NCBI GenBank assembly: GCA_964631125.1
Contig: CAZVYN010000008.1
Span: 3,746-67,745 of the forward strand
Source: an uncultured bacterium
GTDB lineage: Bacteria > Eisenbacteria > RBG-16-71-46 > CAIMUX01
Length of the DNA: 64,000 bases
Reading direction: 5' to 3'
The notes under the pieces are model-generated. The model was not told the origin of the DNA. It ran no database searches and was given only the letters and a program-made list of their open reading frames with translations. Position numbers and translations under genes: made by a program. Below, piece after piece: positions 2,762 to 56,837 of the stretch (the first letter of the stretch is position 1; the number at the start of each line of letters is the position of its first letter).

Positions 2762-5500
2762 ATGCGCGACGCTCTCCACTTCCTGAACATGAGAGATCGA
2801 TTCATGACGAAGCCCTCTTCGCGCGGCTGGTTCGCGACGGCCTGGCCCCTCTTGAACCTCTTGACCCTCTTGACCCTCTTGACCCTCTTGACCCCTTTGA
2901 CCTTCGCGGCGCTCTCGACGACGGCCGCCCTCGCGGTCGAACCGCGGGTCTACTACACGGCCCGCACCGACACGCCGCCCCACCTCGACGGCGCTCTCGA
3001 CGATTCGGTTTGGGACAACGTGGAGTGGGGCGGCGACTTCATCCAGCACGAGCCGGCCGAAGGTCAGCCCCCTTCCTGCCAGACTGCGTTCAAGATCCTC
3101 TACGACGACGACAATCTCTACCTCGCCTATCAGGCCTTCGACCCCGAGCCCCAGGCCATCTCGAGCATCTTGGGCCGACGCGACGACTTCCCCGGCGACT
3201 GGGTCGAGATCAACATCGACAGCTTCGACGACAACCGCACCGCGTTCTCCTTCACCTCGAGCGTCTCGGGAACGCAAGGAGACGAGTTCATCTCGGAGGA
3301 CGGCGACAACTGGGACGGCAACTGGGATCCGATCTGGGAGCAACAGACTCGCATCGACGACCAGGGGTGGACCGCGGAGGTCCGCATTCCGCTGGGACAG
3401 CTTCGCTACGCCGACAGCGCCGAACATGTCTGGGGCATCCAGGTGACGCGACGCATCTATCGACACGAAGAGCGCTCCGTCTGGCAGCCGGTCCCGAAGG
3501 ACGAAGAGGGGTGGGTCAGCAAGTTCGGCGAGTTGCGCGGCATCACCGGCATCAAGGCGCAGCGTCAGATCGAGCTGCTGCCGTACGCTGTCACGCAGGG
3601 AGAGAATTTCCCCAAGCAGGCGGGCAATCCGTTCGAGGACGGCAGCAAGGGTCAGGTCGCGTTCGGTCTGGACGGCAAGATCGGCGTCACCAGCGATCTG
3701 ACCGCCGACTTCACGATCAATCCCGACTTCGGGCAGGTCGAGGCCGATCCGTCACAGGTCAACCTGACGGCGTTCGAGACCTTCTTCGAGGAGAAGCGCC
3801 CGTTCTTCATCGAAGGGAAGAACATCTTCGAGTTCCGCGTCGCGCCCTCCATCGCGTTCGGCACGCACACGACCGATCGACTCTTCTACTCGCGTCGTCT
3901 CGGTCGCTCGCCGCACTATCGCGCCGACGGATTCGAGGAGGGGTACGTCGACCAACCTGGCGAGACGTCGATCGTCGGCGCGCTCAAGCTGACCGGGAAG
4001 ACGGCCAACGGCACATCGATCGGTGTGCTGGAGAGCGTGGCGGCGAGAGAGACGGCTGAGATCGATGTCGACGGCGCGAGGCGCAGAGTCGAAGTGGAGC
4101 CGTCGACCAACTACTTCGTAAGTCGCGTCCAACGAGATTTCCGCCAAGGCGACACGCGAATCGGCGGGCTCTTCACGGCGGTGAATCGGAAGATCGACAC
4201 GGACGAACTGAAGTTCGTGCACGAGGCGGCCTATACCGGCGGGCTGGATTTCTTCCACTACACGCCGGGGCGCAAGAACTACATCGCGGTCAATCTCCTG
4301 GCCAGCACGGTGCGGGGCGATGAGGCCGCCATCCTGGCGACGCAGACGGCGCCGGCGCGCTACTACCAACGCCCGGACAACAAGGGGCAGTCGGTCGACA
4401 GCACGCGGACATTGCTGGCGGGACATGGCGGTTCATTGCGGGTCGGAAATTCGCAGGGCAACCTGCGATTCGAGACCGGCGCGGCCTGGCGCTCCTCCGG
4501 CTTCGAACTGAACGACATCGGATACATGCGCAATGCCGACGAGATCAATCAGTTCTCCTGGGCCGGCTACGCCTTCCGCAATCCGTTCTCGATCTTTCGT
4601 CGGATGGATCTGAACCTGAACCAGTGGCTCGATTTCGAATTCGGCGGGGAGAATCTCTACCAGGCCCTGAACTTCAATACGAGCGCGTCGTTCCTCAACA
4701 ACTGGAGCTACAACGGCTCGGTCGCGCGTGAGAACGAGCGCATCTCGACGTATGAACTGCGCGGCGGGCCCTCGATCAAACTCCCTGGCGCGATCAGCGG
4801 CGACTTCGGATTCGACTCCGACGGGCGGCGGAAGCTCGCCTTCGGCGGCGGCGCATCGTTCAGTAGGTCCGACGATGAGGCGGGAAGCTCGAGCGGCTGG
4901 GGAATCGGCGCCTCTTATCGGCCGACGAACGCCATTCGCTTGCAGGTGGAGCCGGAGTACGAGCGGGGCCGGCCGGACATGCAGCACATCTCGCGGGTCG
5001 ACTCCGATGCCGGCTCGCGCTTCATCTACGGCAGCCTCGATCAGGAAACCTTTGCCCTGTCGTTCCGGGTCGACTACAGCGCGACGCCGGATCTCACGAT
5101 CCAGTACTACGGCGCGCCTTTCGTCTCGGCCGGCAAGTATGGCGACTTCAGGCGCATCACCGACCCGCGCGCCGAGAACTACGAAGATCGCTTCGACCGC
5201 TTCGGCGATCGCGTCGAGTTCGACGGGAAGAGCGGCCGGTACTCGGTCGACGAGGACGACGACGGCGTCGAGGACTACTCGTTCCGGAAGCCCGACTTCA
5301 ATGTGCGGGACTTCAATTCGAACCTGGTCGTTCGCTGGCAATACTCGCCGGGTTCGAGCATCTATCTGGTCTGGTCGCAGAACCGCGGCGGCTTCAACCC
5401 GGACGGCAGCTTCTCACTGAAGGACGATCTCGACGGACTCTTCGGCGTGCAGCCGCACGACGTGTTCTTGATCAAGGTGAACAGGTGGTTTGATCTTTAG
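2762..5500 (+). CDS. CBM9-like/DUF5916 domain protein (probable outer-membrane-associated hydrolase-like protein)
   Basis: N-terminal DOMON/CBM9-like region (DGALDDSVWDNVEWGGDFIQHEP...FKILYDDDNLYLAYQAFD...DWVEINIDSFDDNRTAFSF) followed by an approximately 650-aa C-terminal region. Long signal peptide containing an (LLT)n repeat. Alternative starts at 2789 and 2804. Confidence 0.6.
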   Translation: MRDALHFLNMRDRFMTKPSSRGWFATAWPLLNLLTLLTLLTLLTPLTFAALSTTAALAVEPRVYYTARTDTPPHLDGALDDSVWDNVEWGGDFIQHEPAEGQPPSCQTAFKILYDDDNLYLAYQAFDPEPQAISSILGRRDDFPGDWVEINIDSFDDNRTAFSFTSSVSGTQGDEFISEDGDNWDGNWDPIWEQQTRIDDQGWTAEVRIPLGQLRYADSAEHVWGIQVTRRIYRHEERSVWQPVPKDEEGWVSKFGELRGITGIKAQRQIELLPYAVTQGENFPKQAGNPFEDGSKGQVAFGLDGKIGVTSDLTADFTINPDFGQVEADPSQVNLTAFETFFEEKRPFFIEGKNIFEFRVAPSIAFGTHTTDRLFYSRRLGRSPHYRADGFEEGYVDQPGETSIVGALKLTGKTANGTSIGVLESVAARETAEIDVDGARRRVEVEPSTNYFVSRVQRDFRQGDTRIGGLFTAVNRKIDTDELKFVHEAAYTGGLDFFHYTPGRKNYIAVNLLASTVRGDEAAILATQTAPARYYQRPDNKGQSVDSTRTLLAGHGGSLRVGNSQGNLRFETGAAWRSSGFELNDIGYMRNADEINQFSWAGYAFRNPFSIFRRMDLNLNQWLDFEFGGENLYQALNFNTSASFLNNWSYNGSVARENERISTYELRGGPSIKLPGAISGDFGFDSDGRRKLAFGGGASFSRSDDEAGSSSGWGIGASYRPTNAIRLQVEPEYERGRPDMQHISRVDSDAGSRFIYGSLDQETFALSFRVDYSATPDLTIQYYGAPFVSAGKYGDFRRITDPRAENYEDRFDRFGDRVEFDGKSGRYSVDEDDDGVEDYSFRKPDFNVRDFNSNLVVRWQYSPGSSIYLVWSQNRGGFNPDGSFSLKDDLDGLFGVQPHDVFLIKVNRWFDL
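2849..2903. repeat. 9-bp tandem repeat (cctcttgac) x6 encoding (LLT)n in a signal peptide
   Basis: Direct repeats in the 5' end of the CBM9/DUF5916 gene. Confidence 0.8.
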
Positions 5501-5530
5501 TGCGTTGAGACCGCAGCGGTCTCAACGCAC
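5500..5530. terminator. perfect 15-bp inverted repeat with 1-nt spacer between convergent genes
   Basis: gtgcgttgagaccgc-a-gcggtctcaacgcac spans both stop codons. There is no clear U-tract. Confidence 0.4.
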
Positions 5531-11100: not shown

Positions 11101-11588
11101 CCGCCTTCGAGCGGTGCGACCCACGCGCCGGGGGTGTTGCCATCCCGGACATGTCGTGTGCTCTGGAAGAGCACGGCTCGACTGTCGCTCGTCCAACCGG
11201 TGGGGACATCGGCGCCGCTGTGCCAGGTAAGGCGCTGGATATCGCCGGCCTCGACCGGGATCGCATAGACATCGTCGTTGCCGTCGCGGTCTGATGCGAA
11301 GGCGATCCACTTTCCATCGGGCGACCAGATCGGATGCGCGTCGTACGCGGCGTGCGCGGTGAGCCGTCGCGCTTCGCCACCCTGACGCGCGACGGTCCAG
11401 AGGTCGCCCTGGTACGAGAAGGCGATGGAGCGGCCGTCCGGACTCGGGGCCGGATGTCGGGCCAAGAGGATCGGATCGGCGGCGAGCGCGGGCGCAGTCG
11501 CGGGCGCGATCGTCGGCCCGACGGTCGTCACGAAAAGCAAAGCGCCGATCAGGACGATCGCGACACGATTCAACTTTCCAACGACCAT
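8130..11588 (-). CDS. tricorn protease homolog (S41 peptidase with beta-propeller and PDZ domains)
   Basis: PD40-type propeller repeats (SPDGRSIAFSYQGDLWTV, SPDGKWIAFASDRDGNDD). PDZ domain. C-terminal S41 domain (YAWTKPIVVLCDENTFSNGEIFAWAVQ...GQRTYGG). About 1150 aa. Signal peptide after MVVGKLNRVAIV. Confidence 0.85.
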   Translation of the reverse strand: MVVGKLNRVAIVLIGALLFVTTVGPTIAPATAPALAADPILLARHPAPSPDGRSIAFSYQGDLWTVARQGGEARRLTAHAAYDAHPIWSPDGKWIAFASDRDGNDDVYAIPVEAGDIQRLTWHSGADVPTGWTSDSRAVLFQSTRHVRDGNTPGAWVAPLEGGAAWPILPTGARSAVLSPDGSKLAYIRGGVFWWWRNYSGNGRHRLWLHEPTTPLTGDWWRAGAEGTPRDAPDVEGDDAVATGPGLHAQCALRADGRVTNLSDFTAPGSLVPDPQMTGVPQWLPDGRHLLYLREKNGASNLCVLSIADGSRWLITRFTDGRLRHPRLSANGAVATFEYESDLYVVAAPTGEELRSGQKAEAPQKLVITLPRDSNAASVVRVAVKGNATEFAVSEDGEQLAFVHEGELFAMKSEKDETYATRLTSSAARDQSPVWLDDSKGLIYVSDRDGNRDLYLLRSTDEKEPRLARTLSVEITPLTRTPAEESRPLLSPDGRRLLFQRGIGALVLVKLEDGKTTNERVLVDGWTDLAYDWSPDGKWIVYSQSDEDSNSEIWIEPVDGSREPFNVTQRPGNDTAPTWSSDGKLIAFVSERQVRNEVDLWYVRLQREDEELSRIDRLDAMSKRDLSDEEEKPRKKSGSAKDEKDKGEDNGGKADSAVVEVKIDFDDLPLRVRKLTSLPGQERDVLIGKDSAEFFFTGDTDGKRDLWKVKWDGTELERLTKAGVEPSQVRWDAKQKKLFFLESGGSIASVGTDGGEVTSYPFESEMTLDRVARRGYVFDEAWRELGARFYDEKMHGVDWPRMREHYRPWALAASTHRDFQDVVRMMIGELNSSHQNFSGGTSEYVMPTLVAETGELGSLFDAGFEGPGLRVARVVRRTPADREESRLHPGDVVLQINGAAIEGADGLARLLDRTVDQKVRLTVLGADGKRREVTIRPAKNSDFSARLYEEEIEAREELVHARSEGRVGYCHLTAMGVGNLETYERDLYRRARGRDALVIDVRDNSGGWITDYLLTSLMAPSHATTVERNGARGYPQDRRLIYAWTKPIVVLCDENTFSNGEIFAWAVQVIGRGPVVGQRTYGGVISTGGTTLADGSSLRLPLRGWYSRKDDIPLEGTGCEPDIVVVNRPDELARGIDRQLERSVEVALDQLR

Positions 11589-12230: not shown

Positions 12231-13916
12231 TCAGCGCTGCGGCAGGAATTGAGTCGCGGCGGTGCTTTGTTCGGCGACGAGCCCCTCGGTCGAAGGACGT
12301 TCGGCCCACACTCTTGCGAAGTAGACGCCCGAGGCCGCTAGGTGGCCGTCGCCGAGACGTGCGTCCCAGAGAGCAAAGCGAGCGCCTTCGGCGCCGGAGT
12401 TCAAGCGGAGCAGGGCCACACGCGAACCTGCGGCGTTGTAGATCGCGACGCTAGCTTCGGGGATCCTCTCGGCGAGCGCGACATCGCGCAGATCCAGGCG
12501 CACCGCGCCTGTGGACGGATTCGGAAACGCCACTAGCCGTAGGCCGGTTGTGCGCGAGTTGTGCGGATCCTGCGGTCCGTGTGGTCCTTGTGGTCCGTCC
12601 GGTTCGACAGACGTCGCGGTGAGCTGCTCGGTCACCGTCGTCTTCGTACCGACCGGAACGCCGGGGACGATCTGCGTGATGCGCGCGCCGGCCGATCCGG
12701 GCCAAACGATCCTCAAGTCGACCGTCGTCCGACCCGGAAGTCCGAAGTGTCCGCCCATCTGGTTCTGAGGCGCGAAGCCCGACTGTGCGCAGATCTCGCG
12801 GACGCCCAGTCGGTACTCGGGCAGACCGGCGAAGCCCGCCTCGTACACTTCGACTCGCGCGCCGATGCCGTCGCGATTGGAGTAGCCGGCCCCCTGTGCG
12901 TGGAAACGCCCGGCCAGCTCGACCGTGAGGCCGTCGCTGGAGTCGGTGTCGTTGAGGAAGAGGTAGTTGTCGTTGGGGGAGTGTTCGTTGGCGGCGGCGA
13001 CGTCGAGGTCGCCATCGTTGTCGACATCGCCCCAAGAGAGCCCATCGGTGCTGCCGAGCCCGAACTCGGCAACCTCCGTGAACGAGCCGTCGCCGTTGTT
13101 CAGATACAGATAGTTCTGCTCGGCGGACGTGAAGTCGCCGTTCGCGGTTGCGCAGTCGAGGTCGCCGTCGTTGTCGGCGTCCCCCCATGAGATCGCATTC
13201 GTGTCGCGCGCTCCGAACGCGGGCGATGCGGTGAACGAGCCGTCGCCGTTGTTCGTGTACAACGCGCAGCCGTCGGCATTCCAGTTTCCGACCGCCATGT
13301 CCAAGTCGCCGTCGTTGTCACAGTCGGCCCAGGCGAGCGACGCGGTGTCTTTCATGCCGAATTGCGCCTGCTCCGTCCATGTCCCGTTGCCGTTGTTGAT
13401 GTAGAGATAGTTCTGTCGAGTCGCGCCGAGGATTCCGTTGCCGGTGGCCAGGTCGAGATCGCCGTCGCGGTCGTAGTCGGCCCAGGCCGCCGTAACGGTG
13501 CGACGCGCCACGGCGGAGAAGGGCGGCGCCGTCGTGTAGTTTCCGCCGCCGTCGTTGGTATGGAGCGCGTTCAGACCAGCGCCGCGACCCTCGGCCAGGT
13601 CGAGATCGCCGTCGTTGTCGCAATCCCCGAACACCATCGCGAAGCACTGAGAAGCGCCCCCCCATTGCTGGACGATGGTGAAGTCTCCCGCGCCGTCGTT
13701 GACGTAGAGGGACTTCGGCACGCCACCGTCGACCACTGCCGCATCGAGATCGCCGTCGCGGTCGACATCGCCCCACGAGATCGTGAGCGTGTTTCCGACT
13801 CCGAACTCTTGGCGTTGGATGAACCCGGCTTGGGCGACAGCGACGAATGTGGCGGTGCTCGCGACCGTCGCTACGGCCGCGAAGTTCACGGCTGTCGCTA
13901 CGGCCAACGCGAGCAT
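12231..13916 (-). CDS. FG-GAP/VCBS repeat protein with C-terminal T9SS-type sorting domain
   Basis: At least six repeats of the form GDxDxDGDLD / FG...G. C-terminal FPNPSTGAVRLDL...GVYFARV (Por_Secre_tail/FlgD-Ig-like). The true start is the internal ATG at 13916 (signal peptide MLALAVATAVNFAAVATVASTA). Confidence 0.7.
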   Translation of the reverse strand: MLALAVATAVNFAAVATVASTATFVAVAQAGFIQRQEFGVGNTLTISWGDVDRDGDLDAAVVDGGVPKSLYVNDGAGDFTIVQQWGGASQCFAMVFGDCDNDGDLDLAEGRGAGLNALHTNDGGGNYTTAPPFSAVARRTVTAAWADYDRDGDLDLATGNGILGATRQNYLYINNGNGTWTEQAQFGMKDTASLAWADCDNDGDLDMAVGNWNADGCALYTNNGDGSFTASPAFGARDTNAISWGDADNDGDLDCATANGDFTSAEQNYLYLNNGDGSFTEVAEFGLGSTDGLSWGDVDNDGDLDVAAANEHSPNDNYLFLNDTDSSDGLTVELAGRFHAQGAGYSNRDGIGARVEVYEAGFAGLPEYRLGVREICAQSGFAPQNQMGGHFGLPGRTTVDLRIVWPGSAGARITQIVPGVPVGTKTTVTEQLTATSVEPDGPQGPHGPQDPHNSRTTGLRLVAFPNPSTGAVRLDLRDVALAERIPEASVAIYNAAGSRVALLRLNSGAEGARFALWDARLGDGHLAASGVYFARVWAERPSTEGLVAEQSTAATQFLPQR

Positions 13917-14267
13917 CTTCGGCGGCGCCGCCTGCGCCTGCGCCTGCGCTCGCGCCTGTGCTCGCGCCTTCGTCTCGCCCGTCGCCCTCGCCGCGCTGGC
14001 TCGAGCTTCCTGGAATCGTTGCGTCACCCGCTCCTCCTTCGCGCCGCGTCGGCGCGTGTCCGTCCCGTGACTGCGCGAGAGGCCCCGAGTCTCTCGCCGA
14101 CGGGACAATCGACCCGCGGAGACGAACCGCGGCAAAGGAAGGGATGAGCGGACCTCGAGCAGGGACGAAGTGGCGCGTGGCGCGGGCGAACGGCGTGGGC
14201 GTGGGCGCGCGAGTGAAGGATTCGGCGTGAGAACCGGCCGGAGTCGACGTCCGCTCGAAGGCGAAGA

Positions 14268-14320
14268 TTGTGAAAAATGGTGCAACTATTGCCGGCAACA
14301 GTTGCACCATTTTTCACAAG
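14268..14320. terminator. 53-bp AT-rich near-perfect palindrome, copy 1 (probable bidirectional intrinsic terminator)
   Basis: ttgtgAAAAAtGGTGCAACTATTGCCGGCAACAGTTGCACCaTTTTTcacaag. The arms pair 25 of 26 positions. The one mismatch becomes a G-U pair on the minus-strand RNA. A GC-rich stem is flanked by A5 and T5. It lies 99 bp downstream of the DinB_2 gene stop, after a gcgtcccc x3 repeat. It is identical to the copy at 53393..53445. Confidence 0.6.
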
Positions 14321-14376
14321 CGCTGTCTCGGAAAGCGGGCCCGACCGGCGCTCACGAATCGCGCCCGCGCACGTCC

Positions 14377-14400
14377 GCGTCCCCGCGTCCCCGCGTCCCC
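14377..14400. repeat. 8-bp tandem repeat (gcgtcccc) x3
   Basis: Direct repeats lying between the DinB_2 stop and palindrome copy 1. Confidence 0.8.
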
Positions 14401-14418
14401 GCGGCCCTTCCCTTCCGC

Positions 14419-14943
14419 CTACCGCGACAGCACCGGCAAGTACTCCCTCCACGGCCCGACGTCATTCGCGTAGCGCTTCGACATGACGCGGGCGATCTGT
14501 GCGATGTGGCCGAGGTCGTGAGCGACCCAGGTGGCGAGGAGGTTCCGCAACGTCACGGGGCCGAGCGAGGGATGTAGCCCGGGCGACGAGAGCGACTCGG
14601 ACGAGATCGAGGTCGTGTCCAAGGTCTCCAGATTCGCGGCGCGCTGGCGGGCGAACTCATCGAGGAGCTGATCGAGCGACTTCCCCTCGCTCTCGCGAAA
14701 CTGCGCGAACCGATCGAACGGGTCGAATGCGCGCGCGGGGCCGTGTTCGAGCAAGATCCTCAGACGTGAGATCCAGTCGGTGCGTTCGCCGTGGATCAGG
14801 TGGCCGACCACGTCGTACGGACTCCAGGTCTCCGGTCCCTCGTTGTCGTTGATCCACTCGGCCGGGAGCCCGCGCAGCCAACTGTCCAAGACGACCGGTG
14901 TACGCGCGAGCACCGCGCGCGCCGATGCCAGTTCGAAGTTCAT
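14419..14943 (-). CDS. DinB_2 superfamily protein (DinB/YfiT-like metal-dependent four-helix bundle)
   Basis: WSPYDVVGHLIHGE...WVAHDLGHIAQI gives a His triad pattern. Start at MNFELASA. Confidence 0.6.
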   Translation of the reverse strand: MNFELASARAVLARTPVVLDSWLRGLPAEWINDNEGPETWSPYDVVGHLIHGERTDWISRLRILLEHGPARAFDPFDRFAQFRESEGKSLDQLLDEFARQRAANLETLDTTSISSESLSSPGLHPSLGPVTLRNLLATWVAHDLGHIAQIARVMSKRYANDVGPWREYLPVLSR

Positions 14944-15016
14944 GGCGGGACCTCCTTCTGCCCAATGGTGAGCTGCCTGGTAGCCATCATTCGTCATCAT
15001 TCGTCATCATTCGCCA

Positions 15017-15883
15017 TCATTCGCGGGGCGCAGAACCGCCGCGTTCGCGCCCCGCGAGCAGCGCGCGCAACTGCGAGGAATGGGTGCGTCCCGAAGTCAG
15101 CTCCGTGCCATCGAGCAGGACGACGATATACGCGCCGTGGAACCACGGGCGAAGCTCGCGCACCCGATCGAGGTTCACCACGATCGACCGATGGATGCGC
15201 AAGAACCGCGAGGAATCGAGGCGTGCTTCGAGATCCTTGAGCGGTTCGCGGTGCAGGTGCTTCGTCGCGCCAACGTGGAGCGCGACGTAGTTGCCTTCGG
15301 CCTCGATCCAATCGATCTCATCGTCGCGGACGAAGAAGGCGCGATCACCGTCATGCACGACGAGCCGCCGCGACGAAGGGTTCGCAGGAGCGACTGCCGA
15401 AATCGAAGCAAAGTGCTGCAGCGTTCGCATCAAGCGATCGACCGACGCCGTGAGGTCGGTGGCGATTTCCGGCTCCCGCGTCCGCTCCCGCGTCCGCTCC
15501 CGCAGCAGCCGCCGCGCCTCCACCCGCTCCTTCGCTCGCCGCAGCGCGCGTGCAAAGCGGTCGACGTCGAACGGCTTCAGCAAGTAGTCGATCGCCTGGA
15601 GATCGAACGCCTCCACTGCGTGTTGGTCGAACGCGGTGACGAAGACAACGACCGGCGTCTCGGTCGGCGACAGCGCGCGCAGGAGATCGAGGCCGGAGGG
15701 TCCCGGCATCTGGATGTCCAAGAAGACCAGCTCTGGGTGGAGACGACGGATCATCTCGAGCGCCTGTGCGCCGTCGGATGCTTCGCCCACGCACGCGACC
15801 TCTGCGTCGGTCGCGAGCAGCGCACGCAGCCGCGCACGCGCGAGCGGCTCGTCGTCCACCAGTAAGGTGGAGATCGCCGTCAT
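15017..15883 (-). CDS. LytTR family response regulator (REC + LytTR DNA-binding domain)
   Basis: N-terminal REC domain (LLVDDEPLARARLRALL...VFLDIQMP). C-terminal LytTR domain (RLVVHDGDRAFFVRDDEIDWIEAEGNYVALH). Its start overlaps the upstream kinase stop by 4 nt. Confidence 0.85.
   Translation of the reverse strand: MTAISTLLVDDEPLARARLRALLATDAEVACVGEASDGAQALEMIRRLHPELVFLDIQMPGPSGLDLLRALSPTETPVVVFVTAFDQHAVEAFDLQAIDYLLKPFDVDRFARALRRAKERVEARRLLRERTRERTREPEIATDLTASVDRLMRTLQHFASISAVAPANPSSRRLVVHDGDRAFFVRDDEIDWIEAEGNYVALHVGATKHLHREPLKDLEARLDSSRFLRIHRSIVVNLDRVRELRPWFHGAYIVVLLDGTELTSGRTHSSQLRALLAGRERGGSAPRE
15466..15505. repeat. 12-bp tandem repeat x2.6 inside the response regulator gene (encodes RERTRERTRE)
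   Basis: ctcccgcgtccg repeats. Confidence 0.6.
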
Positions 15884-35471: not shown

Positions 35472-35984
35472 CTAGTGGTAGAAGGTCCAGCCGACGGTGA
35501 CCTTGAGATCGGGCGATTCGTCCACGAGACCCGCCTTGGCTTCGACGAAGAACCGATCGCCGTTGGAGAGCCCCTTCTCGATTCCGCCGAGGACATTGAG
35601 ACCGAGGTCGGTACTCGTGTCGTCGCCGAGTCCATTGTCGCCGAAGCTCGCGAAGTTCACGCCGATGCCGCCGCCGGCGTAGGGAGTCCACACGTCCCAC
35701 GTCTCGCGAAAGCGGTAGGCCGCTTCAGCGTTGACCGCCACCAACGTGATGTCATCCCCGACACCGACTTCGATGTTCGGTTGGAAGCGGACGCGGCGCG
35801 CGAAGTGTCCGTAGTCGAGGTGCGCTCCGAAGTGGAACTGATCGGGGCCGAAGGAAAGCCCGACTCGGGGTCCCCAACCGCGGAATCCCACTTCGTCTTG
35901 GTTATCGGACGGTTGGGCGCCGGCCAGATTCGGAGCGAGCGCGAGGGCTCCGAATGTGACGGCAGCCATGTACATTTTTCGCAT
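35472..35984 (-). CDS. outer membrane beta-barrel protein (OmpW/OmpA-like small barrel)
   Basis: Signal peptide. Alternating amphipathic strands. Aromatic C-terminus GWTFYH. Confidence 0.5.
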   Translation of the reverse strand: MRKMYMAAVTFGALALAPNLAGAQPSDNQDEVGFRGWGPRVGLSFGPDQFHFGAHLDYGHFARRVRFQPNIEVGVGDDITLVAVNAEAAYRFRETWDVWTPYAGGGIGVNFASFGDNGLGDDTSTDLGLNVLGGIEKGLSNGDRFFVEAKAGLVDESPDLKVTVGWTFYH

Positions 35985-36042
35985 TTGTAAGAACTTCCCT
36001 TCTTCCGGGCCTGCTGGACGGTTGGACCTGCTGAACTGCGAA

Positions 36043-38703: not shown

Positions 38704-38759
38704 CCGCTACGGCGCTATGCCGCTACGGCGCTATGCCGCTACGGCGCTATGCCGCTATG
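38704..38759. repeat. 16-bp tandem repeat (ccgctacggcgctatg) x3.5
   Basis: Intergenic, 70 bp downstream of the ComM stop and upstream of the OmpA-TSP3 gene. Adjacent to a lower-GC stretch at 38560-38700. Confidence 0.85.
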
Positions 38760-38830
38760 CCGCGGTGCGCGCCAAGCGAGCCGTGACCCTGCCGTCGTTC
38801 GTCCATCGCTCCTCCGCCGCTCCGCACTCC

Positions 38831-44032: not shown

Positions 44033-44110
44033 AAATACCGGATACGCCGAGAGCCGCACTTCTGCGGCTCCCGGCGTCTAGTGGAACTGACTCGACGAGG
44101 ACGGCAGCCG

Positions 44111-44966: not shown

Positions 44967-45029
44967 GAGAGTTCCTTTCGCTCTGGCGATCGACCTGGTT
45001 GGATCTGTCGCTCGCCCTGTTTCGACAGT

Positions 45030-45146
45030 GGTAGTATGATGACAATCGATTTTAGTTCTAGGAAATATTGCTTCACACTCAAGATCGTTTGACTGTCAAT
45101 ACGCCAAGAGTCGCGGAAGTTGAACCTCACGCAAAAGGAGCGGCCG
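45030..45146. promoter_or_regulatory. AT-rich divergent promoter/operator region between the DUF378 operon and the XRE regulator
   Basis: GC drops sharply (gtagtatgatgacaatcgattttagttctaggaaatattgcttcacactcaag). A TTGACTGTCAA palindrome lies about 65 bp upstream of the regulator start. Confidence 0.45.
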
Positions 45147-45734: not shown

Positions 45735-45780
45735 CCGTGGCGCCACTCTCGTCCGGTGCGCTCGCTGACTACATTCGCGG

Positions 45781-45828
45781 CCTCACTCGCAACCTCATTC
45801 GCCGCCTCATTCGCCGCCTCATTCGGCC
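45781..45828. repeat. 12-bp tandem repeat (cctcattcgccg) x4
   Basis: Intergenic between the XRE-cupin gene and the convergent lipoprotein gene. Confidence 0.8.
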
Positions 45829-51415: not shown

Positions 51416-52654
51416 ATGCCCCGCATTTCTGATTCGAAGATCGGCCGGACGGCCGGACAGTTGGCCGAACGGTCGGCCGGCCCGCTGGCGGGAGTGCTGG
51501 CCGGCTTGGCGTTGCTCGGCCTAGTGAATGGGACGGCGCCCGCCCAAGTGGTCGAGAGCTGGACCCTCACGATCGACAGCTCTACGACCCAACCCGTGGC
51601 GACGGGGCTCTTCGCCTTCGACGCGGCGGACGACGTGATCGTCCTGGCGGAGGGCGCCCTCCGCGCGGGCCAAGAGAGCGAGCCGTACGACCAGGGTTGG
51701 TTCGGGCCGGCCGGCCACACTCGGCTGTCGCGGTTCGGCCAGCCGGTCGGCAACGGAATGCCGTTCGGAGCGCTCGTCGGCGGATTCGGCTCCGATGTGA
51801 CGCAGTTCGAACAACTGGGACGCCTCGGCGCCTTCGCGGTCGCGCTGACGGAAGTCGGAGAAGAGTTCCACGTCGCGCTCAACATGTCCGACTCCGACCT
51901 CGCCGCACTCGAAGGCTCGGTCACGATCACGTTGATCTACGTTCCGGCGGGGAGTGCGGATGTTTCGGAGATCACGATCACTGCGGGCAGTCCCGACGAG
52001 ATCCCGACTGGGTTGACGGCAGATTCCGGAGACAAGTTCGTCGTGCTCCCATACGCCGCGGTGCGCGCGAATGCGGTCGGCGCCAATCCCTACAGCAACG
52101 GCTGGTTCTCCTCGGCGGGTCGGATTCAATTGACGCGCGCAGGACAGCCGGCCGTGACCGGTCCGTACGGCGCGCTCTACGGCAGATACGCCGGAGGATC
52201 CAATTTCTTCATCGGTGACGGCGGGTGTTGGATCACGCAGCCGGCGGATCTCGGACAGGAGCTGATGTTGCTCACGAACATGTCGGCGGCCGATCGCGCG
52301 ACGCTCGTCGGTCGCTACGTCGCCAACGTGATTCGCGTTCCGGCGCCCGCGCCCGCGGCCGTGCCGGGACCTGACGCGATCGAGTACGGCCTGTCCTCCT
52401 CGCCGAATCCGATGAACGGCGCGGCGACGATCCGCTACCAGCTTCCGCAGGCGGGACTCGCGCGTGTGCGGATCGCGGATGCGACTGGACGTTGGGTGCG
52501 GACTTTGACCGACGGAACCGCTCCGGCCGGCGCGCACGCGATTCAGTGGGACGGCGCCGACGATCGGGGTGAGTCGCTGCCCGGGGGAATGTACTTCTTC
52601 CAACTCAGCACCGATGCCGGTTCGCGCGCGGGGCGGATCGTGATCAGTCGCTAG
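51416..52654 (+). CDS. secreted protein with an internally duplicated domain and C-terminal T9SS-type sorting domain
   Basis: Two copies of a domain of about 110 aa (NGWFGPAGHTRLSRFGQPVG / NGWFSSAGRIQLTRAGQPAV). C-terminal SPNPMNGAATIRYQLP...GMYFFQL. Confidence 0.45.
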   Translation: MPRISDSKIGRTAGQLAERSAGPLAGVLAGLALLGLVNGTAPAQVVESWTLTIDSSTTQPVATGLFAFDAADDVIVLAEGALRAGQESEPYDQGWFGPAGHTRLSRFGQPVGNGMPFGALVGGFGSDVTQFEQLGRLGAFAVALTEVGEEFHVALNMSDSDLAALEGSVTITLIYVPAGSADVSEITITAGSPDEIPTGLTADSGDKFVVLPYAAVRANAVGANPYSNGWFSSAGRIQLTRAGQPAVTGPYGALYGRYAGGSNFFIGDGGCWITQPADLGQELMLLTNMSAADRATLVGRYVANVIRVPAPAPAAVPGPDAIEYGLSSSPNPMNGAATIRYQLPQAGLARVRIADATGRWVRTLTDGTAPAGAHAIQWDGADDRGESLPGGMYFFQLSTDAGSRAGRIVISR

Positions 52655-53306
52655 CGCGCGAGAGTTCTCGCCAGAGCCAGCTCTTCGCGAACCGCCAGTC
52701 ACGGACGACGGTTCGCGTCGCCACTCCCAGAATCTCGGCCGTGTCGTCGAACGTCATTCCGCCGAAGTAGATCAGTTCGACGACACGGAGTTTGCGGACG
52801 TCTTCGAGGCCGAGACGTTCGAGGGCGCGGTCGAGATCGAGGGCGTCGATCGGCGTAGCCGAGTTGTTGTCCCAGAGACTCTCGTGCAGGCTGACGCGTT
52901 GTTGTTCACCGCCTCGCCTCTGCGCTCGATGCGCGCGCGCGTAGTCGATCAGAACCCGCCGCATGGTCGTCGCGGCCAGTGCCAACAGGTGACCGCGGCC
53001 CTGCACCTGCGTGTGCGTCTCTCTCGCAAGCCGCAGGTAGGCCTCGTTGGCGAGTGCGGTGGGCCGGAGGGTGTGTTCGGCGCGCTCCCTCCGCATCAAG
53101 TGGCTCGCGAGCCCGCGGAACTCGTCGTAGACCAACGGCAAGAGATCATCGAGCGTGCTCGGCTCGCCTTCGGTCACCTGTTCGAGGACATCCTGCGCGA
53201 AGCGCTCGATGGCGGAGGCTTCTTCGGGGGTGGCGCTGGGCGTGGCGCTGGGTGCGGCGCTGGGTGCGGCGTCTGGCGCGCGATCAGGACGTTCGAACTC
53301 TTTCAT
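52644..53306 (-). CDS. ECF-type RNA polymerase sigma factor (Sigma70_ECF family, kinase-associated type)
   Basis: Region 2 (DLLPLVYDEFRGLASHLM) and region 4 (GMTFDDTAEILGVATRTVVRDWRFAKSWL). Start at MKEFERPD. The N-terminal extension of the longer ORF is a palindrome artefact. Confidence 0.75.
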   Translation of the reverse strand: MKEFERPDRAPDAAPSAAPSATPSATPEEASAIERFAQDVLEQVTEGEPSTLDDLLPLVYDEFRGLASHLMRRERAEHTLRPTALANEAYLRLARETHTQVQGRGHLLALAATTMRRVLIDYARAHRAQRRGGEQQRVSLHESLWDNNSATPIDALDLDRALERLGLEDVRKLRVVELIYFGGMTFDDTAEILGVATRTVVRDWRFAKSWLWRELSRASD

Positions 53307-53392
53307 GCCGTTTCTCCCGATGAGGCGTCTTGCGAGTTCGACCGAGGGTACACGCGAAGGCGTTTCGCGGGTGGCATCGAGGGAGTTGGGGC

Positions 53393-53445
53393 TTGTGAAA
53401 AATGGTGCAACTATTGCCGGCAACAGTTGCACCATTTTTCACAAG
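53393..53445. terminator. 53-bp AT-rich near-perfect palindrome, copy 2 (identical to 14268..14320)
   Basis: Same 53 bp including the single arm mismatch. It lies 101 bp downstream of the STK2 stop and 87 bp upstream of the ECF sigma ATG. Confidence 0.6.
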
Positions 53446-53466
53446 CCCGGGCGATCCCCCGAGGCG

Positions 53467-53553
53467 TCCGCGCGTCTCATGCGCGTCTCATGCGTCTCAT
53501 GCGTCTCATGCGTCCATGCGTCCATGCGTCCATGCGTCCATGCGTCTCATGCG
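53467..53553. repeat. compound tandem repeat: (gcgtctcat)x4 then (gcgtccat)x4 then gcgtctcat
   Basis: Lies between the STK2 stop and palindrome copy 2. It shares the gcgtcc core with the copy-1 repeats. Confidence 0.85.
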
Positions 53554-56500
53554 CGAGTCGCGCTCGCCCACTTCACCATCTCCCCCAAGCTCCGCGCAGC
53601 GCCGCGTTCATACGCGGCGGTGAACGGCTCGTCGCCGATTCTCTCGCGAATCGAGAGGCGCGCGGCGTCGAACATCCTTCGTTGGCCGTCGAGCAGCGGC
53701 AGGCGCTCCTGCTCGTAGGCGCGATCGAGTCCACCGAGCGTTTCGGCGAATGACGCCGGATCTCCCATCGCGTCGGCCAGACGACCGAGCGCGAGCAAAA
53801 CCGAGCAGACGCCCGACGAATTGCCGAGCTTGGAGCGGATGCGCAGCGACTGGACCAGATGTGTGCGCGCCTCGTCGAAGCGGCCGAGCGCCGTGCAGGT
53901 GTCGCCGAGATTGTGCAGGCAGAGCGCCATGCCGGGCGCATCCCGCGCTTCGCGGTGCACTTCGAGGGCTTCTTGGATCGGCGCGAGCGCTTCCTGCGGA
54001 CGTTGCAGGATCTCCAGTGCGCGGCCGATGCTGAGCAGCGCTTTGGACGCGCCCAAACGGTCGCCCAACTCGCGGCTGAGGCGGAGTTGTTCCTCGAAGA
54101 GCGCCTTGGCCTCGGCGTGCTGACCGCGGACGCCGTGAATCGCGGCCATGTTGCCCACGCTGGTGGCGACTCCCGCGCGGTCCCCCACTTGCTCGAAGAG
54201 ATCGCGGGCCTCGCGCCACTGCGCTTCCGCTAGATCGATCTCGAGGGCGAACCAGCTGACGGCGCCGGCGTCGCGCAGCCCGCGCGCGAGAGCCGCGGGA
54301 TCGCCGAGTTCTCTCGCCATCGCAATCATCCGGAGCGAGGCGTCGTCGGCGGCGGGGCGATCCTCGAGCATCGCCAAGGTGCGAGCGAGTCCTCCCCACA
54401 CGGCGATGCGGTCTTTCGGATCGACCGCCGCTCCGTCCAACGGCAACTCGAGCACGCGGCGGAGGTAGGCCACGCCCTCTCGCCAATACCCGGCCATGCT
54501 CCAGTAGCGGCTGAGTCCAGCGGCCAGGGTGTAGACGCGCCGGGCCCACCGTCGGCGCAGGCAGATCTCCAACGCGTCGACCAGATTGGTGTGCTCGACG
54601 TCCATGCGCGCCAGCCATTCCAAACTCAGCCCCTGCTCGCTGGCCTTCGGCGAGAGCATCTGTGTGAGTTGATCGACGTAGCGACCCTCGGTTCGCTCCG
54701 GTTCCTCGTCGCGTCGCGCGAGACGATCGCGGGCGAAGCGTTGGATCGTCTCCAGGAAGCGGTATCGAGCCTGACGACCGCCGTCGAGATTCTCCACCTC
54801 GACGAGTGAGCGCTCGACCAGACGCGCGAGTAGATCGCACTGCTGCCAGGTCGACAGGCCGTCGCGCGCGCAGACCGCCTCTGCGAGTTCGAGTGTCCAT
54901 CCGCCGCGAAACACCGACAGACGCTCGAAGAGCAGTCGCTCCGAGCGGCCGAGGAGTCGATAGCTCCAACTCACCACGCCGGCAAGCGAGCGGTGGCGCT
55001 GCGGTCCGCGTCGCTCGGGCGTCCCGAGCGAAAGCGGGTTGGCGCGGAGTCGCGCGAGGATCTCTTCGGCCGGCAGGGCGCGCGAGTGCCCGGCGGCGAT
55101 CTCGATCGCGAGCGGCAGCCCATCCGCACGGCGGCAGATCTCGGCGACGGTGGCGAGCTGTTCGTCGCGCAGTTGGAAAGACGGTTGCCGCGACCGTGCT
55201 CGCGCGACAAACAGTCGGACCGCCTCGCAGGAGCGCAGCGCGACGGGGTCGTCGGTTTCGGCCGGGAGTCCGAGCGGCGGTAGCACGTAGACCTGCTCAT
55301 CCGGCGAACCGAGCGGCGCGCGGCTTGTCGCGAGCACCGAGACGCCGCGGCAGTTCTCCAGCAAGTCCGCGATCCATCCACCGGCTGCCTCCAGCAGATG
55401 TTCGCAGTTGTCGACCACGAGGAGCGCTTGCCGGTCGCCGAGCAAGCGTGTGACCGCCTGTGCGCGCGAATCGCCCGAAGCGCCTCCCTGGACATCGCGA
55501 ACGCCGAGGGCGCGCGCCGCCAGGCCGCCGATCTGCTCTCCACTCTGTTCCCCACTCTCGATCGTCGAGAGGTCGACGAACCAGATTCCGTCGGGAAAGC
55601 GCGCCGCGGAGCGGGCGGCGGCTTCCAAGGCGAGGCGCGTCTTGCCGGCGCCTCCTGGGCCGGTCAGCGTCAGAAGTCGATGGCCGCCGAGGAAAGTCTC
55701 CACCTCCGCGCGTTCGCGTTCGCGTCCGATGAACTCGGAGAGACGGCGCGGGAGATTGCCGCGCGCGGCGGAGGAGTCGACCGACTCGACCGCGAAGAGC
55801 GCTCGGGCTCGCAAACGCAGGAGCTCCTCGTCCAAGACGCGCCGCGCGTCGGCCGCGGAGGGTCTCGTCTCCGCGTCGAGCGAGATGAGTCCGTGCAGTA
55901 GGTCCACGATCGGACGCGCCAGCGTGTCGGGCAGCGCGCTCCAGTCGATGTGCGCGCCGGCTTCGGGGCCCGAGGCGTCGACCGGCGAACGGTGATCGAG
56001 GGCGGCGCGCCGGGCGAGACACTCGTAGAGCACACAGCCGAACGACCAGAGGTCGGACGCCTCAGTGAGGGCGTCGCCGCGCGCCTGTTCGGGGCTCATG
56101 TAGCCGACGGTGCCGCACGGGCTCCCCGACGCGCCGGGATTGGTCTCGGGAGTGAACGCGAGACCGAAGTCCAAGACCTTCACCCATCCGTCGGGCGTCA
56201 CGCGGATGTTCTGCGGCTTCAGATCGCGGTGCACGACGCCTTGGGCGTGCGCAGCCTCGAGCGCGGCGGCGATCTGCCGTCCGAACTCGAGCGACGCGGC
56301 CAGCGGGACTTCCTCCGAGCGCAGCCTCTCGGCCAGTGTGGCGCCCGGCACATACTCCATCGTCAAGAACGAAGCGGTCTCGGAGGCGCCGTCGATGCGT
56401 TGCTGACTCTCGATCTCGACCAGCTCCTCGAACGAATAGACCTGCGCGACATTGGGCTGGCTCACCGCCGCCAGCATTCGCGCCTCGTCTCGCAGACGAG

Positions 56501-56837
56501 CGCGCCGAGCCCGGCTGCCCGCCGCCTCCGACGTGAGGGTCTTCAGCGCGACGTTGCGACCGAGTTGCGGATCCTCCGCGAGATAGACCACTCCCATCGC
56601 CCCGCGCCCGATCTCCGCCAGGACAAGATACCGGCCGACCCGGTCGGCCGGTCGCAGCCTTCCGCGTGACGCCGGCCGCAAAAAAGCCTCCGACGCCTCG
56701 AACGCCGCCGCGAGCGACGAGACCTCCTCGCGCAACGCGTCGTCCCCCGCGCAAACCTCGTCGAGGTAACGAGATCGCTCGTCCATCGAAAGGTCGATCA
56801 GGCGATCGAGGATCTCTTCGGTCCGGGGTGAGAACAC
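53547..56837 (-). CDS. Ser/Thr protein kinase with AAA/NB-ARC-like ATPase and TPR repeats (STAND-type)
   Basis: Kinase motifs (GRGAMGVVYLA, VALKTL, HRDLKPQNIRV, DFGLA). P-loop GPGGAGKTRLA. TPR C-terminus. Confidence 0.85.
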   Translation of the reverse strand: MFSPRTEEILDRLIDLSMDERSRYLDEVCAGDDALREEVSSLAAAFEASEAFLRPASRGRLRPADRVGRYLVLAEIGRGAMGVVYLAEDPQLGRNVALKTLTSEAAGSRARRARLRDEARMLAAVSQPNVAQVYSFEELVEIESQQRIDGASETASFLTMEYVPGATLAERLRSEEVPLAASLEFGRQIAAALEAAHAQGVVHRDLKPQNIRVTPDGWVKVLDFGLAFTPETNPGASGSPCGTVGYMSPEQARGDALTEASDLWSFGCVLYECLARRAALDHRSPVDASGPEAGAHIDWSALPDTLARPIVDLLHGLISLDAETRPSAADARRVLDEELLRLRARALFAVESVDSSAARGNLPRRLSEFIGRERERAEVETFLGGHRLLTLTGPGGAGKTRLALEAAARSAARFPDGIWFVDLSTIESGEQSGEQIGGLAARALGVRDVQGGASGDSRAQAVTRLLGDRQALLVVDNCEHLLEAAGGWIADLLENCRGVSVLATSRAPLGSPDEQVYVLPPLGLPAETDDPVALRSCEAVRLFVARARSRQPSFQLRDEQLATVAEICRRADGLPLAIEIAAGHSRALPAEEILARLRANPLSLGTPERRGPQRHRSLAGVVSWSYRLLGRSERLLFERLSVFRGGWTLELAEAVCARDGLSTWQQCDLLARLVERSLVEVENLDGGRQARYRFLETIQRFARDRLARRDEEPERTEGRYVDQLTQMLSPKASEQGLSLEWLARMDVEHTNLVDALEICLRRRWARRVYTLAAGLSRYWSMAGYWREGVAYLRRVLELPLDGAAVDPKDRIAVWGGLARTLAMLEDRPAADDASLRMIAMARELGDPAALARGLRDAGAVSWFALEIDLAEAQWREARDLFEQVGDRAGVATSVGNMAAIHGVRGQHAEAKALFEEQLRLSRELGDRLGASKALLSIGRALEILQRPQEALAPIQEALEVHREARDAPGMALCLHNLGDTCTALGRFDEARTHLVQSLRIRSKLGNSSGVCSVLLALGRLADAMGDPASFAETLGGLDRAYEQERLPLLDGQRRMFDAARLSIRERIGDEPFTAAYERGAARSLGEMVKWASATRA

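Follow-up and report, generated by a model that had tools for sequence, protein, structure and literature searches.

The DNA analysed here, a stretch of 64,000 nucleotides (64 kb) of contig CAZVYN010000008.1 from an uncultured bacterium (hereafter the window), carries two copies of a short AT-rich palindrome that belong to a previously undescribed family of short, non-coding, dispersed, lineage-specific palindromic repeats. One base pair of the element varies with the direction of the adjacent genes, which is an unusual and statistically solid new feature. We consider it probable (about 0.6) that these elements represent a compact family resembling the repetitive extragenic palindromic (REP) sequences and REPINs, or miniature inverted-repeat transposable elements (MITEs) composed of terminal inverted repeats (TIRs) only, and that, judged by the shape of the predicted hairpin and by the bias of the variable base toward pairing in the transcribed strand, they would act as a transcription stop in both directions.

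The stretches 14268-14321 and 53393-53446 of the window are identical over 54 bp (TTGTGAAAAATGGTGCAACTATTGCC and GGCAACAGTTGCACCATTTTTCACAAGC, joined at the centre of the palindrome). This is one base more than the 53 bp given by an earlier note on this DNA, which had drawn attention, from the letters alone, to an identical AT-rich palindrome present twice. Each arm is 26 nt long, and 25 of these positions are paired; as that note had stated, the sole mismatch, A.C on the plus strand, becomes a G.U pair on the minus strand. Copy 1 (14268-14321, without assigned strand) consists of the arms 14268-14293 and 14294-14319 followed by GC, and has GA at its left border in place of the GC that is usual in the family. 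Copy 2 (53391-53446, likewise without strand), which was seen in five independent contigs, corresponds to the 56-bp family unit GC-TTGTG...CACAA-GC, and its palindrome extends to arms of 30 nt (53389-53448). Both copies are in the same state, with A in the left arm and G in the right arm, giving the G.U pair in a minus-strand transcript. Each arm in turn contains a smaller palindrome of 11 bp (GCAAC-N-GTTGC), perfect where the arm has G at this position and imperfect where it has A. The G+C content of the 53-mer is 41.5%, in line with the previous estimate of about 42%, compared to a background that amounts to 66.5% over the window and not to the 69% assumed before. A 30-mer core was found at the two window sites only, and none of 100 dinucleotide-preserving shuffles contained any match to it. 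Folding as RNA, a check which the earlier note had proposed, yielded energies of -39 to -55 kcal/mol for 81-nt segments of the window and z-scores of -7 to -10 relative to shuffles.

A half-arm 20-mer pattern run on public metagenomes returned 34 stretches, 32 of which are true copies, all in DNA of 64-68% G+C and all from the same Lake Vanda mats, while the other two are chance matches in low-GC DNA. With the same locus merged across samples and one paralogous pair split, these represent 24 distinct loci including the two window copies, all intergenic, which bears out the earlier proposal that the exact identity of the copies denotes a dispersed repeat family. The family unit comprises 56 bp (GC-TTGTGAAAAATGGTGCAACTRTTGCC-GGCAAYAGTTGCACCATTTTTCACAA-GC, with the centre between the two arms). 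Its borders are sharp, the flanks of different loci being unrelated right up to the element. GC is present on both sides at 11 of 23 loci and is itself part of the palindrome. When seven alternative borders were tried, no direct repeat longer than 2-3 bp that could represent a target-site duplication was common across loci. Since several contigs of 21-87 kb hold 2-3 copies each and the window holds two in 64 kb, a genome of roughly 4 Mb would, by extrapolation of this density, contain copies on the order of 100. The flanking genes are ordinary chromosomal genes, among others those for isocitrate/isopropylmalate dehydrogenase and E2 acyltransferase, gltX, argS, rplS, gcvP, lipA, cydA and cstA. 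All copies belong to one high-GC organism or population of the Lake Vanda mats, and this host is probably related to Candidatus Eisenbacteria.

Species genomes, viral contigs, Rfam and the literature yielded no member of the family. A relaxed core pattern, applied to one genome per species for 185,579 species, identified no family member. Six matches to this pattern in low-GC or actinobacterial metagenome-assembled genomes (MAGs) were rejected as unrelated, as their loop lengths differ and four of the six share conserved flanks of their own. Viral contigs contained no match to the element, Rfam reported nothing at gathering score and at E<1 only noise from generic eukaryotic miRNA-precursor hairpins, and a literature search for the element sequence found no occurrence. 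The actinobacterial MAGs L001, L002, L003 and L006 share a 34-nt palindrome, GGTGCAACATTTGACTCACGTCAAGTGTTGCACC, in conserved flanks, which probably lies in a conserved gene and is unrelated to the window family. We also considered the two window copies as attL and attR of a 39-kb island; this is ruled out by the 22 further loci and by the content of the interval, which includes glycosyltransferase, kinase and FlgD_ig genes without an integrase.

Extended homology between the flanks of different loci was restricted to one case, L019/L028 versus L031/L027, whereas elsewhere only tandem-repeat similarity was observed. In this case two different loci (L019, 1285-1470, and L031, 1120-1310) share a palindrome-bearing segment of about 190 bp, in which 1 of the 56 positions of the element is different and the flanks are 88-89% identical. 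The shared segment could represent either a local duplication or a mobile unit of greater length. Beside it, L028 4132-5358 encodes a 408-aa protein with N-terminal ribbon-helix-helix and C-terminal HNH nuclease motifs.

Exact-protein look-ups matched the window DNA in microbial-mat metagenomes (JGI Ga01631xx, ENA ERZ505514 and Logan SRR64482xx), the source samples of which are pinnacles of the benthic mats in Antarctica's Lake Vanda (PMC11080526). Independently assembled ENA metaSPAdes and JGI contigs from several samples contain both copies, with flanks and asymmetric mismatch unchanged. Because the same joins and the same asymmetric base occur in these assemblies, a duplication artefact of assembly, against which the earlier note had cautioned, is excluded. 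Contigs of the short-k Logan assemblies break exactly at the centre of the palindrome, either at position 1 (L011, L012, L014-L016 and L057) or at the last base (L054-L056). A break at a repeated palindrome is the expected behaviour of a de Bruijn graph, and such elements may add to the fragmentation of genomes assembled from communities of this kind.

Most copies combine two arms of the same type, A-A, and the hybrids A-B and A-C join different arm subtypes precisely at the centre. Compared to the A-type arm, the B-type arm (TTGTGAAATCGTGCACTACTRTTGCC) carries a 2-nt deletion on one side of the GTGCA block and a 2-nt insertion on the other; the C-type arm reads TTGTGAAATCAAGCGCAACTGTTGCC. A D-type element (TTTGTGAAATACAGCACAACTCGTCTC and GAGACGAGGTGCACCAAATTTCACAAA joined at the centre; L038 4586-4640, identical to L020 14176-14230) is located 180 bp from an A-A copy. 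It keeps the outer sequence TTTGTGAAAT but differs in its palindromic core (CTCGTCTC and GAGACGAG), and the middle parts do not match each other. Altogether, the outer TTGTGAAA, the GTGCA block and the palindromy of the core are kept across the variant arms B, C, D and E, while the core sequence varies by type. Neither B-B and C-C combinations nor solo arms were found in the window and the fetched loci.

The 56-mer is predicted to fold at about -41 kcal/mol into a hairpin of 26-28 bp. The top of this hairpin is formed by a GC-rich 13-bp stem (-19 kcal/mol; GGUGCAACURUUGCC/GGCAAYAGUUGCACC) that ends in a CCGG loop, and AUUUUUCA comes directly after it on each of the two strands. This GC-rich stem with U5 on both strands is the shape of a bidirectional intrinsic terminator, as the earlier note had recognized. 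For the analysis of gene context, flanking genes were called with our own codon-usage caller, and 32 of 38 submitted genes were matched by Pfam in the called frame and strand. In 25 of 43 scorable arms the arm faces the 3' end of a gene, mostly 14-180 nt past the stop codon, and the distances to downstream gene starts range from 37 to about 1000 nt. The 19 fully scorable loci comprise 11 between tandem, five between convergent and three between divergent genes; compared to background, their depletion from divergent spacers falls short of significance (p = 0.17).

One position of the element is commonly polymorphic, namely R in ACTRTTGCC when each arm is read on its own strand from the outside to the centre, and all G/A combinations occur. 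The state of this position follows the context of the arm. Arms facing a 3' end, toward which the neighbouring gene points, carry G in 21 and A in 4 cases, while arms facing a 5' end, from which the neighbouring gene points away, carry A in 15-16 and G in 3 cases (Fisher p = 1e-5 to 2e-5). Permutations shuffling the elements among the loci with random flips gave p < 5e-6, and flips of orientation alone p = 0.006. At tandem loci the mixed G/A form was found in 10 of 11 cases, compared to 2 of 8 in the other contexts (p = 0.006), and in 9 of these 10 the G is located in the arm transcribed first, so that the transcript contains G.U and not A.C. In terms of hairpin energy, this corresponds to -41.2 kcal/mol for the orientation with G.U compared to -36.9 kcal/mol for that with A.C. 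Convergent loci carried the perfect G/G form in four of five cases and divergent loci the A/A form in two of three.

By this rule, the transcribed strand forms the better RNA hairpin. In a minimal reading, selection acts against the mismatch in the strand transcribed into the hairpin, which accounts for the way mixed forms are oriented at tandem loci as well as for the symmetric forms at convergent ones. If selection sees the RNA hairpin, pairing in the transcribed strand is what one would expect, and we regard it as the best sign, though an indirect one, that this hairpin matters. Manual inspection revealed no convincing -35/-10, ECF-type (extracytoplasmic function) or Bacteroidota-type promoter created by the A state.

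Taken as a mechanism, the element would spread or be homogenized within the genome as a hairpin-forming unit. Our best guess for the mobilizing enzyme is a single-strand transposase of the RAYT/HUH type (RAYTs being tyrosine transposases associated with REPs), because no target duplication was found and only the outer arm sequence and the palindromy are conserved. Once inserted, transcription from a neighbouring gene would turn the element into an RNA hairpin of 26-28 bp, which would end or protect transcripts arriving from either side and could thereby serve as bidirectional intrinsic terminator and 3' stabilizer. The variable base pair would stay paired, as G:C or G.U, in the strand transcribed into the element.

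Several observations weigh against this reading. A simple terminator scan called neither window site, because the stem continues through the A5 and U5 tracts, and all context statistics rest on 24 loci. The earlier note had placed the copies in gene 3' regions; the element is not confined to these, since 3 of 19 loci (about 16%) are situated between the starts of divergent genes, a position that calls for no terminator, compared to about 1% of the REPs of E. coli (bioRxiv 10.64898/2026.03.23.713779). Furthermore, the arms start with GC-TTGTGAAA and lack the 5' GTAG head of E. coli-type (group 2) REPs. No transposase or recombinase gene was detected among 38 flanking genes outside the window (Pfam) or among the annotated genes beside the window copies, and a crude RAYT (Y1/HUH) motif screen of 583 kb, a small part of the genome, was negative. 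With the A.C mismatch the hairpin loses only about 4 of its 41 kcal/mol, and selection on pairing alone would therefore be weak. Finally, pairing selection does not explain the rarity of symmetric tandem loci or the sorting by context of G/G and A/A, both of which form perfect hairpins (convergent 4:0, divergent 0:2; p = 0.07).

The most serious competitor, which we nevertheless hold to be unlikely, is a selfish TIR-only MITE or REP-like element without host function. Here the hairpin would simply result from abutted TIRs, and the G/A states from oriented insertion or from strand-biased mutation or repair, for instance of a hypermutable C whose protection depends on its lying on the transcribed template strand. 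The sharp borders, the near-identity of the copies, their unrelated housekeeping neighbours, their presence in divergent spacers, the small energy cost of the mismatch and the restriction of polymorphism to a single site, which changes by transition in several arm types, speak for this view. We considered a transition hotspot at the C opposite the variable G (in ACAGT or ACNGT) in this context; protection by template-strand repair only would fit tandem, convergent and divergent contexts alike. Classical deamination of C to T on the non-template strand was rejected, as it would put A/A at convergent and G/G at divergent loci, the reverse of what the data show. Oriented insertion alone leaves the dominance of mixed forms at tandem loci unexplained. 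Moreover, neither a target-site duplication longer than 2-3 bp nor a parent insertion sequence (IS) was found, and in the duplicated segment shared by L019 and L031 the element is conserved better than its flanks.

Beyond mere tolerance of G.U pairing, each half of the element could carry a one-base mark of the gene end it abuts, G at 3' and A at 5' ends, a reading that we regard as doubtful. In one version, the element would be a stop tunable in direction and read by a sequence-sensitive factor; a sequence-specific reader of the nested GCAAC-N-GTTGC, perfect only in arms with G, was considered as such a factor. If true, G/G at convergent loci would stop transcription in two directions and G/A at tandem loci in one, with A/A where nothing needs stopping. 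In the other version, the halves would be exchanged at the centre together with the genes.

This exchange, in which the element is a recombination or hairpin-processing site, is improbable when taken as an explanation of its own. Halves would be swapped at the palindrome centre, those with G moving with gene 3' ends and those with A with 5' ends, and inversions between copies would create G/G at convergent and A/A at divergent junctions. Such a process predicts the arm-by-arm rule exactly and is in keeping with the hybrids A-B, A-C and D1-D2, which are joined precisely at the centre; in addition, any pair of palindrome copies forms a direct and an inverted repeat at the same time. However, no recombinase gene was found near any copy, and the same flank was never seen in alternative joins across samples. 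Crossovers by homologous recombination over 54 bp would for the most part fall outside the central 10 bp and thereby leave mixed forms, and an initial orientation bias is needed that the model itself does not explain. If halves were indeed exchanged, the repeats would be breakpoints for the rearrangement of gene order.

An operator bound by a global regulator, the other option raised by the earlier note, would make the element a regulon motif for the ECF sigma factor gene, the FG-GAP gene and others. The palindromic structure with a nested 11-bp GCAAC-N-GTTGC in each arm, the outer TTGTGAAA and GGTGCA blocks kept in variant arms and the location of two copies (window copy 2 and that in L021) upstream of ECF sigma genes are compatible with this. 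A classical operator is nevertheless very improbable because of the abrupt borders, the near-identity over 56 bp, unlike a degenerate binding motif, and the placement of five loci between convergent genes, where there is no promoter. Downstream starts lie anywhere between 37 and about 1000 nt away, the genes alongside the copies have no functional relation to each other, and the orthologous junction in relatives lacks the site. Back-to-back sigma-54 promoters (TGGTGC-N5-TTGC on each strand) can practically be dismissed: the GG-N10-GC spacing present in A-type arms goes along with two mismatches to TGGCAC, the B-type arm has CG in place of the -24 GG, the D- and E-type arms lack the -12 TTGC, the putative promoter of each arm would fire across the element and at convergent loci antisense into a gene, and no enhancer-binding protein gene is among the annotated genes of two stretches of about 20 kb around the window copies, so that the match is incidental, as already suspected. 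A scan for sigma-70 promoters near both window copies found none.

The history of the element can be followed at copy 2, where it separates a kinase gene from an ECF sigma factor gene. In the window, the kinase-sigma spacer is 240 bp long (53307-53546) and consists of a tandem array, a short linker, the palindrome and an 84-nt leader. In contrast, kinase and sigma genes overlap by 4 bp without any spacer in relatives whose ECF sigma orthologues are 80%, 77% and 63% identical (overlaps at L058 6001-6004 and L060 10001-10004, among others), the 63% orthologue being from an NCBI MAG named Candidatus Eisenbacteria. A further ECF sigma homologue with 77% identity is preceded by a 104-bp spacer without such a palindrome, and about 50 kb of DNA from relatives contained no palindrome with arms of at least 13 nt. 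In a 91% relative from a different sample, a related element occupies the same junction; its outer arm is kept (CTTGTGAAA, GGTGCAACT), while the core is replaced by another palindrome, GCCCC-GGGGC, and the contig begins at the centre (GCCCC-GGGGCGAGTTGCACCTTCTTTCACAAG). Because the junctions of distant relatives lack spacer or palindrome while the 91% relative has a related element, the element is an insertion in the lineage of the window, which has persisted at this junction and evolved or been homogenized to a genome-specific type. The 240-bp spacer may uncouple the expression of kinase and ECF sigma factor. A gene pair that overlaps in relatives and is split here by an array and a hairpin illustrates how intergenic DNA is being built in a poorly known uncultured phylum.

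The genes next to both copies, four in total, are encoded on the minus strand. Copy 1 lies 97 nt past the stop codon of the DinB_2 gene (14419-14943, minus strand; 174 aa as called on public contigs), the 3' end of which faces the arm with G. The arm with A faces the 5' end of the downstream FG-GAP_3/UnbV_ASPIC/FlgD_ig gene (12231-14027, minus strand; 598 aa), which is predicted to start with a GTG at 14027 following GGAGGAG, 240 nt from the copy. Similarly, the arm with G of copy 2 faces the 3' end of a Ser/Thr kinase-AAA-TPR gene (53547-56837, minus strand; 1096 aa), 100 nt past its stop codon, while the arm with A faces the 5' end of the ECF sigma factor gene (52644-53306, minus strand; PF07638, 220 aa), 84-87 nt from the ATG at 53306. 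These values agree with the distances estimated previously, about 100 bp from the DinB_2 and STK2 genes and 87 bp from the sigma factor ATG.

Both copies have a tandem array in the same spacer. Tandem Repeats Finder identified 4.1 copies of the 8-nt unit CCGCGTCC beside copy 1 (14375-14407) and 9.3 copies of the 8-9-nt units GCGTCTCAT and GCGTCCAT beside copy 2 (53470-53553), where the array overlaps the stop codon of the kinase gene (53547-53549). The array beside copy 1 is length-polymorphic in the natural population, since it comprises two or three full units depending on the sample (L051 versus L052 around 11480-11530). Most copies have short arrays no more than 200 nt away, on one side or the other, with periods of 5-25 nt and units unrelated to each other; a GACGC core is shared by units at three loci. 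Arrays are present in 10 of 18 element-bearing spacers compared to 19 of 77 others; element-bearing spacers are longer, and expressed as density the values are 2.5 versus 1.4 arrays per kb. Hence, the arrays that the earlier note had described are both real, but they do not form a common module with the palindrome, since arrays of unrelated units occur on either side and also without the element. They are a general, unstable feature of the spacers, at most mildly associated with the palindrome and not part of it. In the 64-kb window as a whole, Tandem Repeats Finder listed 77 rows in spacers and gene ends, e.g. at 734-777, 1672-1763, 2847-2902, 14985-15023, 38704-38763 and 45772-45825, and the intergenic DNA of this organism appears to be largely built from short GC-rich arrays.

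The only other near-perfect palindromes of the window with arms of at least 14 nt, at 5500-5530 and 44044-44077, are GC-rich, have no flanking A/T tracts and are unrelated to the family. Likewise unrelated to it are the two most AT-rich spots of the window (45015-45104 and 35953-36008; 30-38% G+C over 40 nt), possible candidates for promoters or for DNA of foreign origin.

Whether REP-like repeats are selfish or shape transcript ends is a long-running question, for which a near-invariant hairpin with one variable base pair provides a natural test. If the context rule holds genome-wide, it would constitute population-genetic evidence of transcription acting on such repeats.

Among known systems, integron attC sites were rejected, as the stem of the element is fully paired, whereas attC sites have an unpaired central spacer and extrahelical bases between their R''/R' boxes, and the copies lie 20-40 kb apart among housekeeping genes and not at the 3' ends of cassettes in an array; GTGCAAC and GTTGCAC match the attC box consensus at only 6 of 7 positions. 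With bidirectional intrinsic terminators the element shares the GC-rich stem between an A-tract and a U-tract, which provides a hairpin followed by U5 from either strand, and the position of most copies 14-180 nt past a stop codon. However, ordinary terminators are neither sequence-identical between loci nor placed between divergent genes, and the stem described here runs on through the A/U tracts to 26-28 bp. MITEs are likewise small and non-coding with TIRs, and two inverted arms make up the entire 56-bp unit, whereas the target-site duplication that defines MITEs was tested for and not found. A parent IS with the same ends was not detected either, as the window and the fetched loci, which cover part of the genome, contained neither solo arms nor a transposase. 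Correia elements of Neisseria are TIR-only MITEs of 100-155 bp with a TA target duplication and an origin from a DDE-type transposon. They resemble the family in being non-coding, in their two TIRs of roughly 26 nt, in their intergenic dispersal and in forming RNA hairpins able to terminate or process transcripts, and differ from it in that the search here revealed neither a duplication above 2-3 bp nor a parent IS.

The closest known kind is the REP/REPIN class of E. coli, Pseudomonas and Stenotrophomonas, which is mobilized by RAYTs encoded by a single-copy gene that the repeat flanks; membership in this class is not established. In addition to the missing GTAG head, the negative RAYT search in a small part of the genome and the divergent loci discussed above, the family differs in its length of 56 bp without a spacer, compared to about 100 bp for REPINs, in its A5/T5 tracts and AT-rich composition within a genome of 66% G+C, and in its host, an uncultured Eisenbacteria-like lineage. 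REPINs are nested palindromes of two inverted REPs, become asymmetric through a deletion and a matching insertion, and are inherited vertically (bioRxiv 10.1101/2022.05.22.493013), and in E. coli REP elements act as terminators and stabilizers in 3'UTRs (bioRxiv 10.64898/2026.03.23.713779). The family described here likewise consists of short extragenic hairpin repeats at many dispersed loci, in which two inverted units, here the arms of 26-28 nt, form one hairpin with a nested imperfect palindrome in each unit. Symmetric and asymmetric forms coexist, the deletion and insertion of the B-type arm fitting the description of an asymmetric REPIN, and, as in the REP/REPIN class, target duplications are absent and lineage-specific sequence types persist at orthologous positions.

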